Of a stretch of DNA of 64,000 bases, positions 54,403 through 60,743 are shown one piece after another; position 1 is the first letter of the stretch, and the number at the start of each line of letters is the position of its first letter. Below the pieces are notes generated by a model that was not told where the DNA came from, did not search any database, and saw only the letters and a list, made by a program, of their open reading frames with translations. Source of the DNA: Candidatus Poribacteria bacterium (GTDB taxonomy: Bacteria > Poribacteria > WGA-4E > JAJDTR01); the NCBI GenBank assembly GCA_965222225.1, contig CBDCTK010000002.1, positions 2,080,001-2,144,000 of the forward strand, in the 5' to 3' direction. The position numbers were made by a program, and so were the translations under genes.

Positions 54403-55377
54403 CTATTTTCCCGGATATGACCTATTCTCTAGCTCTGCAATGAACTTCTCCGCCGAAATCGCCGCAGCGGCTCCGGCGCCGCCCGCTGTAATCGCTTGAC
54501 GAAAGATATGGTCATGAACATCTCCAGCGGCGAAGACACCCGGAATATTCGTGCTTTGGAGCTTGTCTACGACGATGTAATCTTGGTCATCAAATTCGAT
54601 AGTTCCTTTGTACAATTCTGTGTTCGGAATATGCCCGACGAAGATAAACACCCCATCAATCGGGAACACCTGTTTCTCATCGGTTTCAACGTTTCTGAGC
54701 AACGCACCATTGACCTTTTCACCATCACCTTGAATCTCTTCGACTACCGTGTTCCAGATAAACTTAATTTTGTCGTTTTTGAAGGCACGCTCCTGCATAA
54801 TTTGGCTTGCCCGAAGTTGGTCACGGCGATGAACAATGTAGACCTCAGAAGCGTACTTTGTTAAAAATATGCCCTCCTCAATAGCGGCATCGCCCCCACC
54901 CACGACAATGAGTCGCTGATTCTGGAAAAAGAAACCGTCACACGTCGCACAATACGACACACCTCGTCCACCGAACTCCTCTTCACCCGGAATCTCAAGC
55001 TTGCTCGGGGAAGCGCCTGTGCAGATAATCACTGACTTGGCAAGATATTCTTTATCATAGGTTTTCACGTAGAATGGGTGCCGATTGAAGTCAACCTCTG
55101 AGACCATGTCGAACCGCACCTCTGTGCCGAAACGCTCGGCTTGCTGTTGTAACCCCTGAATGAAATCTGCGGCTTCGGTTCCGAAGAAACCGGGGTAGTT
55201 TTCAAGATCAAGTGTCAACGAGAGTTGTCCCCCGAGCGCATCTCCGGTTATCAGCAGCGGTTCAAGCATCGCGCGAGACGTGTAAACCCCCGCGGCGAAA
55301 CCCGCTGTCCCTCCACCGATGATGATAACATTCCGTTCCTCGATAGCATTCTTGTCGTTTCTTTCTGTTGTTGTCAA
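54403..55377 (-). CDS. trxB: Thioredoxin reductase
   Basis: IIGGG.AG, GVSYCATCDG, GGGDAA.EE, VFAAGD. Confidence 0.96.
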   Translation of the reverse strand: MTTTERNDKNAIEERNVIIIGGGTAGFAAGVYTSRAMLEPLLITGDALGGQLSLTLDLENYPGFFGTEAADFIQGLQQQAERFGTEVRFDMVSEVDFNRHPFYVKTYDKEYLAKSVIICTGASPSKLEIPGEEEFGGRGVSYCATCDGFFFQNQRLIVVGGGDAAIEEGIFLTKYASEVYIVHRRDQLRASQIMQERAFKNDKIKFIWNTVVEEIQGDGEKVNGALLRNVETDEKQVFPIDGVFIFVGHIPNTELYKGTIEFDDQDYIVVDKLQSTNIPGVFAAGDVHDHIFRQAITAGGAGAAAAISAEKFIAELENRSYPGK

Positions 55378-55745: not shown

Positions 55746-56621
55746 CTATTTTGCGCTACAGTGAGTATTCTGTGCGTTATGACCATAATTCATCCTTGAC
55801 TCGGGAGGCACCATTCGAGGGATGCCGTGGATAATCGGATAATCTAACTTACAAGCGCTACACCAAACACGATCTGCTTCCCAGCCGATTTCGCCTTTAC
55901 AAAGCGGACACACTAGAATATCCTTTAGTGTCTTTGTCGAATTCCGACGCCGATTCACGAAAACAGATTTCGCCTTGAGGATTAGGTTCCTGGGCACACG
56001 GTTCTTCACGATTGGTGCCCACTTCTTCCAAAATGAGGTGTGATTAACCTCGTCGAGCATACCGGAAATCGTTTTTCGAGACTCCAAATCGAGCGTGGGG
56101 GTTTCGGGCGGGAGGATTTCGTAGTCAACTTTGCCTGTCCACTCATACTGCACAAGGAAGAGCTTATGATGGGTAACGTGAAAGCGCGCAAAATTCTTGT
56201 CATGCGCTGCCAGGGCGTGAAAAAGCTGACCAAATTGGCTTTTGACCGCTTTCTTCTGAATAACCAATCGGTTATTGACAAGATTGACCATCCAGTTGTG
56301 ATAAGGCCACCCGTAAAGTCTTTCGGCAATCTCGGAAGGTGTTTCGATATAGCCCGCAGAAGCAACGCGCGTTAACTCGCGAATCAGTAATACCGGGTCT
56401 TCGACATGCTCCAAAATATGAGAGCAGATTATGTAACTAAATGACGCATCCGCAAATGGTAGATATTGACCGTCTGCCTCAACAAATGGACGATCGGCGA
56501 CAATGCTTCCACCTCGTTGTAGGTCATCATTGATAAACTTGTCGCATAGGATGTCGGATCGGGTCTTCGGATTGTGTCCGCTCCCTATTTCGAGAACGAA
56601 ATCGTCGGGACGAATATTCAT
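55746..56621 (-). CDS. Class I SAM methyltransferase with C-terminal Trm112/YcaR-like Zn ribbon
   Basis: VLEIGSG, LPFAD.SF, CSHILEH; LVCPLCKG...CSAC...YPIIHGIP. Confidence 0.82.
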   Translation of the reverse strand: MNIRPDDFVLEIGSGHNPKTRSDILCDKFINDDLQRGGSIVADRPFVEADGQYLPFADASFSYIICSHILEHVEDPVLLIRELTRVASAGYIETPSEIAERLYGWPYHNWMVNLVNNRLVIQKKAVKSQFGQLFHALAAHDKNFARFHVTHHKLFLVQYEWTGKVDYEILPPETPTLDLESRKTISGMLDEVNHTSFWKKWAPIVKNRVPRNLILKAKSVFVNRRRNSTKTLKDILVCPLCKGEIGWEADRVWCSACKLDYPIIHGIPRMVPPESRMNYGHNAQNTHCSAK

Positions 56622-57481
56622 CGCTGCACAACCATGCTAATGTAAAGGCTGATGCGCGGGAAACAGGTTGCCATAATCCTGCCTTTGGCGCTAACGCCGA
56701 CGCATCGTTTCACGATTCGGAGACCGTGACGTCGGAAATATTTCTCAAGATCAATTGGATTTGCGTAGTAAGCACTGTCGCCATCCCCGCCGTAAACCTG
56801 TTCTTCAAGGTCTGGTTCTCGGTATAGAAATTGTGGTGCAGACGACAATCGCTTCTTCAAATACAGGAAGAAATTCCTCCAGCTGTTGGTTAACGCTTGG
56901 CGCTTTGTTTCACCCCAAAACGGTCTGCCAGGTTTCCCTCGAATCAGCTGCATTAGGTCGAGGAGTGGCATAAGTGGAGAGCACAAATTCGGCCCGCAAA
57001 TGATGATTTTCCCCCCTTTTCGGGTCACGCGAATCATCTCCGAGAGTGCCGTTTCAACATCCGGCAAGTGTTCAATCAGTTCATTTGAACAGACGACATC
57101 AAACGTCTCGTCCGGAAACGGAAGTTCAAGGACATCGCAGACTCGGTATTCTAGGTTGTGGTCGCCATCACGAGTCACTGTCTTTTGCCATTGGACTGCC
57201 TCTTCAAGGAAGAGCGCGGAGATATCTGTCCCGATTACATCGTGCCCTGACCGATTGAGTAACATTGCCGCGATGCCGTTGCCACAGCCGAGTTCCAAAA
57301 TCTGGGAGTTTGGCGGCGTATAGCGATTCACCAGTTCCACAAACGGTTGATGATAGGCTTCGTCATGCTCGGCGAGGAGCCCTTTGTATGTCTCCGATGT
57401 CTCATAGAACTGTCGCATGCGTTGCCGGAGGGGTTCTTCCGACGCATGCGTTGAAGTCTCTGGTTGACAGACAGTGTTCAT
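56618..57481 (-). CDS. Class I SAM-dependent methyltransferase
   Basis: ILELGCGNG, LPFPDETFDVV, IEHLPD. Confidence 0.88.
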   Translation of the reverse strand: MNTVCQPETSTHASEEPLRQRMRQFYETSETYKGLLAEHDEAYHQPFVELVNRYTPPNSQILELGCGNGIAAMLLNRSGHDVIGTDISALFLEEAVQWQKTVTRDGDHNLEYRVCDVLELPFPDETFDVVCSNELIEHLPDVETALSEMIRVTRKGGKIIICGPNLCSPLMPLLDLMQLIRGKPGRPFWGETKRQALTNSWRNFFLYLKKRLSSAPQFLYREPDLEEQVYGGDGDSAYYANPIDLEKYFRRHGLRIVKRCVGVSAKGRIMATCFPRISLYISMVVQR

Positions 57482-57682
57482 CGTTCAGATTGATAAGGCG
57501 GTCTTGAATCCCCATGTTTGGGTAGAATAATTTTGTACCTTATTCCATTATACAATCGCGTCTGAGCAGAGGTCAACTGAAATCAGGAGACGACAGGATC
57601 TCATAGTTACGCGTGACATGGCAAGAGTTTTCTGAGAACGTTTTGTAGGTCTCGGTGTGGAAAGGTGTCGGAGGTTGGAGAG

Positions 57683-58267
57683 ATGACCAAAATTGTGCTG
57701 TCTTCCCTTGTCGGACTGATCTTTCTAGTTGGATTGTTCGGGTGTAGAGATAACGATGAAGCTCAAACCGTTGTAGACTCATCCGACATTTCCGACAATC
57801 TTCCCCCGGTTGCACCGCCCGATTTTGGGGGTGCAAGGTTATTTCAACTTGAGGATTTGAACGGACGACTTGTGTCCCTAAACGACTTCCGTGACCAAGT
57901 GGTTGCTATCAATTTTTGGGCAACGTGGTGTAATCCGTGCCGGGAGGAAATCCCGGACTTGGTGAAGATCCAAGACAGGTTTCGGAACAGAGGTTTCATT
58001 GTACTCGGACTCTCTAGAGATTTGCTTAATCAAAACGGTCAATTGGCGAAAAATGAGGAAGCGGTTGAATCCTTAGTTGAAGAATTCAACATCAATTATC
58101 CGGTCCTTTGGGACACTGAAAATATCTATAGCAGACATTACGACGGGATTGGAATGCCTACTACCATCATCTTGGACCGCCACCATCGCATCCGGTTCAG
58201 GCACACGGGCATCATTGATTCCGTCACGCTGGATGCAGAGATAATCATGCTCCTAAACGAGGCGTAG
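57683..58267 (+). CDS. TlpA/ResA-family disulfide reductase lipoprotein
   Basis: LFGC lipobox; NFWATWCNPCREEIP; GMPTT. Confidence 0.92.
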   Translation: MTKIVLSSLVGLIFLVGLFGCRDNDEAQTVVDSSDISDNLPPVAPPDFGGARLFQLEDLNGRLVSLNDFRDQVVAINFWATWCNPCREEIPDLVKIQDRFRNRGFIVLGLSRDLLNQNGQLAKNEEAVESLVEEFNINYPVLWDTENIYSRHYDGIGMPTTIILDRHHRIRFRHTGIIDSVTLDAEIIMLLNEA

Positions 58268-58494
58268 GAAAGCCTTGAGAAGTTAACACGACGTGCCGCT
58301 ATTTCATTTTTATCCGAGATTGATCGTACCGTAACCTCCGTTTCCATGTGGATTATCGGCAAATATTGTATTGCCGTTGAATTTGATTTGTGATAAAATC
58401 GCTTGTGTTCCATTAACGCTTTCTTCCACCATTGAGGTGATGTGGTAAGGCAAGATTGCAGATTTAAGAATCATAAATCATTCCCTCGTCATTG

Positions 58495-58691
58495 AGAACC
58501 TGTTTGAAAGGTACAGTTTGTAGGGTGCGCACTGCGCACCAGCCTCTAAAAGCCCCAGAGTGGGATCAAGGAAGCGAATAGCGACTGCGATAGAGATCCT
58601 ACAGGTATGTAGCAGCCAACAATGAAAACATGAAAAAACTTCCTACAAATGACCAAAAATGGCTTTGCCACCGATTATTCAAACAGGCTCT
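58495..58691. mobile_element. MITE with IS5-like terminal inverted repeats, containing a GTAG REP and a GA module (58565-58600)
   Basis: AGAACCTGTTTGAA ... TTCAAACAGGCTCT (13/14 match); internal GTAG-GGTGCGCA-C-TGCGCACC. Confidence 0.72.
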
Positions 58692-58757
58692 TAGTGAAGT
58701 ATCGTTTCAAATTACTTACAAAACCTGAATGCAACAGAAACAGAAGGAGACTATATC

Positions 58758-59786
58758 ATGAACCGTTTAACCATTCTTATCCTCACAATGTTCCTCGGAT
58801 TGACACTTCTTGGTACAGTGTCACTGGCTGACCACCATGAGAATCCCTGCAATCCGTGCGCGAGCGAGGAAACCGCAAACCCTTGTAATCCATGTAACCC
58901 GTGCGCGGCTAACCCGTGCAACCCGTGTGCAGCTAACCCGTGCAATCCGTGTGCGGCTAATCCGTGCAATCCATGTGCGGCGAAGATGCACTTTACCATC
59001 GGCGACGATCGAAACGTATTTTCCTTCGAGTCGAAAGCACCGTTGGAGACCATTATTGGGCGAACGAACAAAGTTACCGGAAAAATCTCCGTTAATCCAA
59101 TGGACATTTCTAGCGGTGCCATGGCAAAGTTTGTAGTCGACCTCGGCAGTATAACAACGGGAATCGGTCTCAGAGATCAGCACATGCGGGAGGGATACCT
59201 GGAAACAGACACGTATCCGACCGCGACTCTCACCCTAGATGGACTGACCAAAGTTTCCAAGGGTAAACTTGAGGACATGCAGACGGTCAGAGCAGACGCA
59301 GACGCGACGCTGGAGCTGCACGGTGTCAAGCGTAGAGTTGTTTTGAAAGGTGTCAAGGTGACCTTCTTGAAGGAAAACGAAGACACCCAAGCGCTCCTAC
59401 CGGGCAGTCTTCTTCGGATTGAAGGCAGCTTTACTGTGAAGCTCGGCGATTACAATCTCAAGAGACCGCAAGTTGCTTTTCTCAAAGTGAGCGAGGATAT
59501 AGAGATTAACGTAAGTCTATTCGGTTCATCGGGTGCCGGGGCGAACAATCCGTGCAATCCATGCAATCCGTGCGCGACGAACCCTTGTAATCCATGTAAT
59601 CCATGTAATCCATGTGCGGCAAATCCTTGCAACCCTTGTGCAGGTAATCCGTGCAATCCGTGCGCGGCAAATCCTTGCAATCCCTGTGCAGGCAATCCAT
59701 GTAACCCTTGTGCCGCGAACCCCTGCAATCCGTGCGCGGCAAATCCTTGCAACCCGTGTAATCCTTGTAACCCCTGCGGGTTGTAG
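58758..59786 (+). CDS. Secreted YceI-family protein flanked by Cys-rich (Asn-Pro-Cys)n arms
   Basis: Signal peptide; YceI core ([33 protein letters not shown]); 11 N-terminal and 21 C-terminal NPC units; AAGGAG RBS. Confidence 0.9.
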
Positions 59787-59951
59787 CCTCTTGACACATG
59801 GAAGGATAGGACTTGCGCAGCGTAGGAGTTCATTGCCTTGCATTCCCACGAATCCAAGTTGCGTAAGTCCTTTTCCAACCACGATCACGAAGTGTTTCAT
59901 AAGAATCTCTCGAACAGCTGAAGTCCGAGTGGTGGCAATGAGAAAGAGAAC

Positions 59952-60743
59952 ATGGAAACACAGATTTGGTATTTGAAAAATATCAAGTTCTTTCGCAATT
60001 TGACTGATGCAGACTACTATGCGCTGGATCGAAGTGCAAATTTGAAGCAGTACAGCCGACGCGAGCAGGTCAACGGAAAGACGGATTTCGGAAACACTGT
60101 TTATCTCCTAAGGAACGGAAGAGTTAAAATCTACAAACTCTTGCCCAACGGTGAAGGACTTACGCTTGAGGTGGTAGAATCAGGCGAAATCTTCGGCGAA
60201 ACTGAAAACGTTGATGACGAGCCTCGTGACACGGTAGCCGAAACTCTGAACGATTCGCTTCTGTATGTCATGCGTCGGCGAGATTTTGAGCTGTTTCTCA
60301 AGAAGAAACCCGACCTGACAATGCGTCTGACGAAGTTTGCCCGTACACGTAGACAGCACCTCCAAAACCATATCGGAAACCTGGTTTTCCGAACAGCTTC
60401 TTCCCGGCTTGCATGCCTGCTGCTTTCTTTAGCCGATGGGGGTGGGGTCCACAATAGTAACGGCATGGAGCTGCGAGTAAAGTTATCTCAGGCCGATTTA
60501 GCCAAGCTTACTGGGACAGTTCGCGAAACGATTGGCGACCTTCTCAATGAACTGGAACGGCTGAGCATCATTGAGGTCCAAGGCCGACGAATCAGACTCC
60601 TGAATCAATGGAAACTAAAGAAGATTTCTGACGCCAAGATGGAGGAGCTAGAGATACCACCCGACGAGGAAGAAGAACCGAATCTCTTTGAGGCTCCCGG
60701 CAACAGCTTAACGCCTCCTACCGAACAGAAAACAGCAAAGTAG
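59952..60743 (+). CDS. Crp/Fnr family transcriptional regulator
   Basis: GRVKI, GEIFGE, PR; HTH LSQADLAKLTGTVRETI. Confidence 0.92.
   Translation: METQIWYLKNIKFFRNLTDADYYALDRSANLKQYSRREQVNGKTDFGNTVYLLRNGRVKIYKLLPNGEGLTLEVVESGEIFGETENVDDEPRDTVAETLNDSLLYVMRRRDFELFLKKKPDLTMRLTKFARTRRQHLQNHIGNLVFRTASSRLACLLLSLADGGGVHNSNGMELRVKLSQADLAKLTGTVRETIGDLLNELERLSIIEVQGRRIRLLNQWKLKKISDAKMEELEIPPDEEEEPNLFEAPGNSLTPPTEQKTAK

Follow-up and report, generated by a model that had tools for sequence, protein, structure and literature searches.

Why would a protein of the YceI family carry 32 cysteines, each of them inside an Asn-Pro-Cys (NPC) unit? The question is raised by a gene (58758..59786, +) in a 64,000-nucleotide stretch of DNA from Candidatus Poribacteria bacterium (assembly GCA_965222225.1, contig CBDCTK010000002.1, positions 2,080,001 to 2,144,000), called here the window. 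Its product combines a YceI barrel with two cysteine-repeat arms, and the gene is referred to below as the armed yceI. The answer that we favor, tentatively and from genomic context, is that the arms, unmodified and reduced, would buffer thiophilic metals.

A YceI barrel between two cysteine-repeat arms

The open reading frame (ORF) starts with an ATG, preceded about 8 nt upstream by AGGAG, and encodes 342 residues plus a stop; its assignment is supported by a Pfam YceI match, by homologs, and by coverage with contigs from RNA runs. All of the cysteines (32/32) lie inside NPC tripeptides, 11 at residues 29 to 73 and 21 at residues 264 to 340, and the 183-residue barrel core (residues 76 to 258) has none. 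This recount agrees exactly with an earlier note on this DNA, which had described an exported YceI protein with two Cys arms; that description was borne out, with export predicted by inspection. The protein has 19 overlapping C-x-P-C pairs, and the spacers between NPC units are ASEETA, AA, AG, AT, or GL.

Residues 1 to 24 (58758..58829, +) are predicted to be a Sec signal peptide, with MNR, a hydrophobic core, and VSLA recognized by inspection as its n, h, and c regions. The region has a low predicted local distance difference test score (pLDDT) in the structural model, where a helix spans residues 5 to 14, and homologs show the same layout. Cleavage after VSLA would leave D-H-H at the mature N terminus, which the earlier note took for an amino-terminal copper- and nickel-binding (ATCUN) site. 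An X-H-H sequence after the predicted cleavage point is indeed seen in the closest relatives (L002 to L004, P0001, P0003, P0036, and P0046); elsewhere the motif is missing, most armed homologs beginning with A-E-N-P-C or similar, and ATCUN would be at most a lineage detail. The N-terminal arm (residues 25 to 75; 58830..58982, +) is 51 residues long and consists of DHHE followed by 11 NPC units (11 cysteines, 22%). The C-terminal arm (residues 259 to 342; 59532..59783, +) has 84 residues and 21 NPC units (21 cysteines, 25%). Neither arm contains an aromatic residue (F, W, Y), and pLDDT is below 50 over residues 18 to 73 and from residue 263. Pfam and NCBIfam scans at E ≤ 0.01 returned no model for the arms and no metallothionein family, so the term "metallothionein-like" used earlier holds as an analogy and not as family membership.

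Codon usage indicates how the repeat is maintained. Among the 32 NPC units, asparagine is encoded by AAT (21) or AAC (11), proline by CCG (13), CCT (8), CCA (7), or CCC (4), and cysteine by TGC (17) or TGT (15). Positions 1 and 2 of these 96 codons are invariant and position 3 varies, and the 24-bp array of the C-terminal arm is only 72% matched at the DNA level (90% for the N-terminal array), so the repeat appears to be kept at the protein level, as had been proposed. The array is also far beyond chance, since a six-frame scan of the 5.7-Mb genome identified this gene as the sole stop-to-stop frame with at least three NPC or C.PC units.

The core (residues 76 to 258; 58983..59531, +) is an eight-stranded YceI barrel by all the comparisons made. 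It matched Pfam YceI (PF04264) over residues 95 to 254 with E = 2.4e-20 and 73.9 bits (cut-off, 23.7), and it is the only YceI gene in its genome. An AlphaFold2 model built from 104 aligned homologs had pLDDT values of 87 to 98 over residues 75 to 260, and below 50 in both arms. Foldseek matched this model to 1wub, 1y0g, 5ixh, and 7bwl at E values of 3e-12 to 1e-11 with target template modeling (TM) scores of 0.76 to 0.85; the 21 matches listed at E ≤ 0.001 were all of the YceI family, and beyond them E values were no better than 7e-3 and TM scores stayed under 0.2. A family profile searched against PDB sequences found 1y0g at 3e-13. As modeled, the barrel is ordinary for a YceI protein, and the two poly-thiol arms are disordered. 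The YceI family binds polyisoprenoid and other lipophilic ligands. A lipophilic or isoprenoid ligand in the barrel is stated in the titles of the solved relatives 1wub and 2x32.

Sequence from this locus is also present in public RNA libraries. Parts of a 3.2-kb stretch occur in six runs recorded as RNA, and the contigs of four of them (three studies) cover the gene nearly end to end, one of 951 nt, for example, spanning 58664-59680. Contigs of three runs carry a 48-nt in-frame skip (58898 to 58947, two NPCNPCAA units), and two runs have an 18-nt in-frame deletion at 59583/59586 (one NPCNPC). Both variants being in frame, strains differ in arm length with the reading frame intact. Libraries of this kind can contain DNA, and the contigs are evidence that the sequence is present and not proof of expression; word depth over yceI exceeded that over both neighbors in 4/4 runs, a hint only, as contigs cannot rank expression.

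Distribution of the subfamily and turnover of the arms

A search of 5.8 billion proteins at E ≤ 1e-3 returned 1471 homologs. Among the best 120 of these, 115 had at least three NPC units, 4 had at most one cysteine, and 1 had DPC-type units instead. One genome per species was then scanned, which returned 80 loci, the nearest of them labeled Candidatus Poribacteria and further ones belonging to Ignavibacteriota, Melainabacteria, Planctomycetota, Gemmatimonadota, Latescibacterota, and Zixibacteria. An ORF and motif filter kept 71 of the 80 (L016, L036, L043, L047, L060, L062, L069, L071, and L079 were dropped), which gives 72 loci with the window. Loci with at least three NPC units were called armed (37/72), and those with fewer units are referred to as the other loci (35/72).

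A quick maximum-likelihood tree was made from the barrel cores with the arms removed. The Poribacteria clade (16 rows; Shimodaira-Hasegawa-like approximate likelihood ratio test [SH-aLRT], 95) has both arms throughout (16/16), and it groups with a Melainabacteria-type clade (18 rows; SH-aLRT, 99) in which no member is armed (0/18). The Ignavibacteriota clades have either the C-terminal arm only or both arms. At least eight changes of arm state are needed on this tree, suggesting that the arms are an optional addition with a history of repeated gain or loss. Within a sample of 151 genomes of the phylum, strong orthologs were found in 8/9 genomes of family f1, 26/26 of f2, 5/5 of f5, and 1/4 of f4; the largest family, f3, gave only weak matches to an armless YceI of about 210 residues, in 11/100 genomes.

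The spacers of many homologs are Lys-rich (GGKA, AAK). Lysine beside cysteine is typical of metallothioneins and oxazolins. Two Latescibacterota homologs (L040:7962-8657 and L019:9890-10630) have other Cys tails (GGGGGCDGGGGGCDGGCGGG; DPCAPC or DPCDPC units), and the tail position, as far as these sequences tell, tolerates different Cys-repeat grammars.

Armless orthologs in MNIO operons

Most Melainabacteria-type loci (16/18) have a gene for an MNIO enzyme and/or a DUF2063/HvfC protein directly upstream of the armless yceI. The MNIO genes are of the HvfB/BufB type, with scores of 310 and 303 bits that fall just short of the cut-offs (360 and 310). Of those 16 operons, 11 begin with a gene for a signal-peptide protein made up of KEGSCK- or GEKSCK-type repeats, and the order is Cys-repeat peptide, MNIO, DUF2063, and yceI fourth. 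Excerpts of PMC12452194 describe operons of this peptide-MNIO-DUF2063 type as those of copper-chelating bufferins and of Buf_EGKCG/oxazolins, with DoxX as the usual fourth gene and an ECF sigma/anti-sigma pair in some clusters.

No MNIO gene (PF05114) was found within 6 kb of any armed locus (0/37), and PF05114 had no match in the window's own genome, which is 94.87% complete. Action of an MNIO (DUF692) enzyme on the arms, one form of the earlier suggestion that a Cys-modifying enzyme is encoded elsewhere, is unlikely on these counts, and MNIO-dependent modification of the window protein was rejected. At the level of gene content, the two arrangements show a YceI subfamily tightly linked in evolution to secreted Cys-repeat chains, which would be MNIO-modified where they are separate and unmodified where they are fused.

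The arm on other exported proteins

When the C-terminal arm was used as the query against longer proteins, 1017 were matched at E ≤ 1e-3. Pfam domains were tallied for the best 120 of these from a precomputed Pfam column: 47 had P460, 32 a SoxA/TsdA-type cytochrome c domain, 8 YceI, 6 LysM only, and 1 CCP_MauG only; the rest had no named domain. Pfam matches of arm-bearing proteins to "Cornifin" and "Amelogenin" were set aside as low-complexity artifacts. The window protein fits the same module, with tandem [ND]PC units, C-x-P-C pairs, predicted disorder, and a position after the predicted signal and/or at the C terminus. A literature search for NPC or Asn-Pro-Cys repeats, Cys-rich YceI, and copper found no description of the arm. 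The listed MNIO papers, in the parts covered, had no mention of YceI, and the supplementary cluster tables of PMC12452194, which were outside this search, may name it. The arm is thus a widespread, undescribed cysteine-repeat module, on a barrel that belongs to the known YceI family.

Genes beside the armed loci

All ORFs within 6 kb were collected from the 72 loci, clustered by BLASTP, and named with Pfam and NCBIfam; the counts are descriptive, as related genomes are not independent. A Crp-family regulator was found in 24/37 armed loci and 1/35 others. Every row of the Poribacteria clade (16/16) has the regulator gene on the same strand at +1 or +2, and in nine Ignavibacteriota loci it belongs to a CMD-thioredoxin-Crp block on the opposite strand. 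A TlpA-like lipoprotein gene lies directly upstream of 6/37 armed genes, including that of the window, and of 0/35 others, with the active site WCNPC in the window and WCKPC, WCAPC, or WCGPC in relatives. Other thiol-redox genes were AhpD/CMD-like (13 armed and 2 other loci), small thioredoxin-like (Thioredoxin_3; 9 and 1), and exported proteins of the AhpC/TSA fold with a WCPYC site (7 and 2); OsmC, DUF3179, and a reductase of Grx-TrxR type were also among the neighbors.

Three of the AhpD/CMD-like genes (L051:8269-8805, L064:8065-8637, and L032:8067-8645) have one in-frame TGA, in the context C-H-Y-TGA-I. This TGA sits at the second cysteine of the CxxC of Cys-type homologs, and the proteins are probably selenocysteine (CxxU) proteins, judging by this alignment. 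For L037, the fourth locus in which the AhpD-like gene is split into ORFs, no frame could be read over the range tried. DUF3179 is listed among selenoprotein families. It was found in six loci, alone in L009, L015, L026, L031, and L040 and fused in the Planctomycete L020 (4164-6113), where it is joined to a complete domain of the formylglycine-generating enzyme (FGE) two genes upstream of the armed yceI; the fusion gene adjoins a gene for a small two-helix membrane protein (cluster 10).

Some neighbors point to metals. MerR, MerTP, and MerA genes lie beside the armed gene in four Ignavibacteriota loci (L025, L034, L035, and L042), divergent from it in L025 and L034. MerTP matched NF033556 with 247 bits (cut-off, 180), and MerA, scored in L025 only, matched TIGR02053 with 549 bits (cut-off, 454). 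An arsenite methyltransferase gene (552 bits; cut-off, 400) is at +1 in L031 and L035. DUF6969 was found in 11 armed and 3 other loci, and it occupies +1 or +2 of yceI in L022, L025, L027, L028, L030, L031, and others. A His cluster (FFHIHR..EYGHFHTF) is conserved in the DUF6969 proteins, which also have a twin-arginine signal (RRxFIK); this suggests an exported metalloprotein.

FGE was found in 7/37 armed and 0/35 other loci, and in six of Ignavibacteriota type (L024, L026, L032, L037, L051, and L064) its gene is at +1 of the armed gene. All seven FGE neighbors (7/7) have the same catalytic motif and export-like N termini, and the L051 protein aligns with human FGE at E = 1.4e-67 with both catalytic cysteines matched (GGSWFCSPNYC). 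Upstream of yceI, four of these loci have an ECF sigma gene and a gene for a zinc-finger anti-sigma factor. The earlier suggestion of an enzyme that modifies cysteines fares badly for MNIO but lives on in another form, an exported FGE adjoining the armed gene in seven loci of other phyla, and not in the window. Taken together, the fused domains and neighbors of NPC repeats, with mer, TlpA-like, and AhpD/OsmC genes beside armed genes and MNIO operons around armless ones, are in line with the metal-sequestering or redox scaffold that the earlier note had in mind.

Surroundings of the gene in the window

Directly upstream of the armed yceI is a gene (57665..58267, +) for a TlpA/ResA-like thiol:disulfide oxidoreductase with the site W-C-N-P-C, a lipoprotein by its lipobox LFGC. 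It matched Pfam AhpC-TSA/Redoxin and the NCBIfam ResA/TlpA models, all below the equivalog cut-offs. Downstream lies a Crp/Fnr-family regulator (59952..60743, +) with the Pfam domains cNMP-binding and HTH_Crp_2. It has one cysteine and for that reason is not of FNR type; by its position it is likely to regulate the locus. FNR (TTGAT-N4-ATCAA) and CRP (TGTGA-N6-TCACA) boxes with at most two mismatches were searched for up to 350 nt upstream in the 16 Poribacteria-clade loci; the window had none, and hits elsewhere were sporadic and at unrelated positions. A scan of 57500-60100 for promoters and terminators found a weak promoter-like site (58371-58399) and a weak hairpin (58357-58376), with counts near the expectation from shuffled sequence.

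Between the tlpA-like gene and yceI is a copy of an interspersed repeat of about 200 bp (58490..58697), which ends about 60 nt before the start codon. When 58400-58760 was compared with the own genome by blastn, 456 pieces matched, up to about 298 of them over 58560-58600 and many at 89 to 96% identity; a repeat family of such abundance is notable for a 5.7-Mb bacterial genome. Contigs of the RNA runs pile up over the repeat with many different flanks. A small RNA at 58456-58776, considered from the high depth in these runs, was rejected: the interval is multi-copy repeat, and neither Rfam nor ARAGORN (tRNA) gave a match.

On the other strand, two adjacent S-adenosylmethionine-dependent methyltransferase genes occupy 55746-57481 (-), one with a Trm112-like zinc-ribbon tail. 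The pair (clusters 37 and 38) is kept beside the locus in the window and L002 to L004, and it matched arsenite-methyltransferase models weakly, far below the cut-offs. The TrxR-like ORF at 54403-55377 (-) encodes 324 residues; its orthologs in L002 to L004 have 413 residues with an N-terminal glutaredoxin domain.

The thiol-redox inventory of the genome is relevant to the state of the arms. One gene for a DsbD-type electron importer (DsbD_TM) was identified, and none was found for DsbB, VKOR, DSBA, or Thioredoxin_4. DsbB was present in 0/151 and VKOR in 6/151 genomes of the phylum sample. Since these oxidizing systems were not found in the genome and are nearly absent from the sample, exported thiols can plausibly stay reduced.

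Function of the arms

We tentatively propose that the arms buffer thiophilic metals. The protein would be exported by Sec to the periplasm as a lipocalin-like YceI barrel flanked by disordered C-x-P-C arms, offering 32 thiols. As no MNIO gene occurs in the genome or near the 37 armed loci, the arms would be used as made, with no modification of the MNIO type. Their thiols would stay reduced in a cell with no oxidizing system of the DsbA/DsbB type, with the TlpA-like lipoprotein encoded next door as their likely keeper and a DsbD-type importer encoded elsewhere. In this state the arms would act as a high-capacity thiolate buffer, in the first place for Cu(I) and in relatives also for Hg(II). 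In MerP and HMA domains, Hg(II) and Cu(I) are classically bound by CxxC acting as a bis-thiolate. The arms would thereby do the job of the separate MNIO-modified Cys-repeat peptides found beside the armless orthologs. A lipophilic ligand, isoprenoid or quinone, probably sits in the barrel and may anchor the protein at the membrane surface or couple it to the quinone pool, and control of the gene probably falls to the downstream Crp-family regulator. We favor metal buffering because the split or fused relation to operons of copper-binding RiPPs (peptides made by ribosomes and modified after translation), the mer and arsM neighbors, and the twin-arginine-exported His-cluster neighbor are hard to explain otherwise.

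Several findings weigh against metal buffering. The protein has no metal-specific signature, no metal gene is present in its neighborhood in the window (genes for TlpA-like, Crp-like, and TrxR-like proteins, two methyltransferases, and an M28 peptidase), and the own genome has no MerA above the cut-off. The mer and arsM neighbors occur in Ignavibacteriota only (4 to 6 of the 37 armed loci), where mobile resistance genes could have inserted by chance. Related loci are not independent, and neighbor counts overstate the support they give. The operon link of oxazolin type does not show that both kinds of Cys repeat do the same job. A plain metal sponge does not explain why, outside YceI, the arm is joined almost only to heme proteins, 107 of the 112 new proteins among the best 120 arm matches having a CxxCH motif. 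Finally, the commonest neighbors are thiol-redox and peroxide genes (AhpD-like in 13, thioredoxin-like in 9, and AhpC/TlpA-type in 13 armed loci), which fit a redox buffer equally well.

That redox buffer, or relay, is a possible if doubtful answer that ranks close behind. The arms would cycle between dithiol and disulfide in the periplasm and absorb oxidants (peroxides, HOCl, quinones, or Cu-driven oxidation), with re-reduction by TlpA-like or CPYC-type oxidoreductases and a barrel that may present a lipophilic redox ligand such as a quinone or lipid hydroperoxide. It explains the AhpD, OsmC, and thioredoxin neighbors and the heme fusions better than metal buffering does: genes of thiol redox and peroxide chemistry are the most frequent neighbors, on proteins other than YceI the arm is joined to redox heme domains, C-x-P-C is the active-site pattern of the thioredoxin family (C-N-P-C in the TlpA-like protein of the window), and an in-frame TGA would put a redox-active selenocysteine site, C-H-Y-U, in three neighboring AhpD-like proteins. 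However, 32 stoichiometric thiols are a small sink unless recycled fast, no peroxidase-type catalytic domain is fused to them, and the links to mer, arsM, and MNIO operons are left unexplained. A version of the protein as an alternative DsbB, with a barrel-bound quinone oxidizing the arms, was rejected on its distribution, which is not complementary: DsbB (0/151) and VKOR (6/151) are rare or missing throughout, and f3 lacks these and the armed YceI alike. The same thiols might instead carry reactive sulfur (persulfide, polysulfide, or thiosulfate adducts) or selenium, like the swinging Cys arm of SoxY. Fusion of the arm to SoxA/TsdA-type (32) and P460 (47) domains in the best 120 arm-bearing proteins and the selenoprotein-type neighbors agree with such a role, which we nevertheless regard as quite improbable, YceI having no known sulfur chemistry and the conserved neighbors of the 37 armed loci including no sox, dsr, sqr, or sulfur-transport gene.

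Two further readings concern modification and structure. The arms could be a scaffold of substrate sites on which an exported FGE oxidizes the C-x-P cysteine to formylglycine or a related product. The FGE motif is C-x-P-x-R, and each NPC-NPC junction supplies C-N-P, its first three positions; the arginine is missing, the residue at +4 being N, A, or G and never R. The presence of FGE in 7/37 armed and 0/35 other loci, with catalytic cysteines kept and export-like N termini, speaks for this scaffold, but the adjacency is limited to a few related lineages and is missing from the window and from 14/16 Poribacteria-clade rows (the other two have DUF3179 instead). FGE is moreover expected in sulfatase-rich genomes, and tblastn in the own genome gave 8 to 13 hits per FGE query; we consider modification by FGE decidedly unlikely. 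A structural role, in which intermolecular disulfides tether or polymerize the protein in the envelope as in Cys-rich spore-coat and envelope proteins, appears the least probable by some way. It recalls CdeC of the C. difficile exosporium, which according to excerpts of PMC7677010 has a 6-fold NPC repeat near HHH and self-assembles, and LysM is among the fusion partners of the arm; against it, searches for machinery that makes disulfides found none in the genome or in nearly all of the phylum sample, the enzyme next door is a reductase and not an oxidase, and arm length varies freely between strains.

Metal buffering can also be set in a wider frame, which we hold to be unlikely as a whole. 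The YceI subfamily and a secreted poly-Cys chain would form one ancient two-part periplasmic device with an interchangeable Cys part, a separate MNIO-modified peptide in Melainabacteria and fused NPC arms in Poribacteria, Ignavibacteriota, Planctomycetota, and others. A quinone in the barrel would couple the quinone pool to thiol and metal chemistry, for example by reducing and trapping Cu or Hg or by regenerating thiols, and FGE would act on the C-x-P cysteines in some lineages. If a copper-dependent exported FGE does act on C-x-P arms, these would be the first FGE substrate other than sulfatases.

The arm is very common on exported proteins, with more than 1000 sequence clusters on YceI and about 1000 more on cytochromes. 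If such arms are enzyme-free thiolate buffers, they would be a third answer to periplasmic Cu and Hg stress, simpler than metallochaperones and MNIO-made bufferins, and the proteins would be easy to test and usable for metal capture. The link of armless orthologs to oxazolin-type operons provides a concrete, testable partner for YceI, a family of long-uncertain function, and cultured carriers such as Rosettibacter primus (locus L025) open the question to experiment.

Comparison with known systems

Judged by sequence, the arms fail the defining tests of the groups that they most resemble: no MNIO and no EGKCG for bufferins and oxazolins, no family match for metallothioneins, and no arginine for FGE substrates. 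Bufferins and Buf_EGKCG/oxazolins, which are MNIO-modified copper-binding RiPPs of the periplasm (PMC12452194, PMC11626156), resemble the arms as Sec-exported (here by prediction) and often Lys-rich Cys repeats, and some of their clusters include ECF sigma/anti-sigma genes, as do some armed loci. They differ in that the repeat here is NPC and not EGKCG and is fused to a folded domain, with no MNIO or DUF2063 in the genome or near armed loci, and thiooxazole chemistry would not be expected in NPC arms. The Pfam and NCBIfam scans of the window protein, which did not include the authors' own Buf_EGKCG and Buf2 profiles, found no DUF2282 or Buf_6/12Cys signature. CdeC is alike in motif, with a short NPC run beside a His run in a Cys-rich protein; in the parts of PMC7677010 consulted it is a spore-surface assembly protein of a Gram-positive bacterium with six units and no context of a YceI domain or signal peptide.

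Metallothioneins and copper storage proteins (Csp) share with the arms a very high Cys content, a lack of aromatic residues, and, to judge from composition, a high potential metal capacity. The arms have no match to either family, are built from xPC triplets, are predicted to be exported and not cytoplasmic, and are appended to a barrel. The Cys pairs of MerP/HMA and MerT are also periplasmic CxxC dithiols, and armed genes stand beside MerR-MerTP-MerA in four loci; here, the ferredoxin-like HMA fold is missing, many pairs follow in tandem in a disordered chain, and no mer genes were found in the window or genome, where MerA stayed below the cut-off. The reductases TlpA, ResA, and CcmG share C-x-P-C with the arms. 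Since the arms have this motif without a thioredoxin fold, a role as client or buffer is more likely for them than one as enzyme.

The cytochromes with NPC arms, of P460 and SoxA/TsdA types, bear the same arm where the window protein does, following the signal peptide and/or at the C terminus, on heme domains, whereas the carrier here is a heme-free barrel of lipid-binding type. That barrel is, by sequence and predicted fold, a member of the family represented by TT1927b (1wub), E. coli YceI (1y0g), BcnA (5ixh), and PA0423 (7bwl), and like the solved members it is apparently exported. The solved chains, at 161 to 191 residues, are barrel-sized by length, whereas the window protein adds Cys arms of 51 and 84 residues and belongs to a distinct YceI subfamily with the pattern TGIx[LK]R[DN][EQ]H[ML] and gene neighborhoods of its own.

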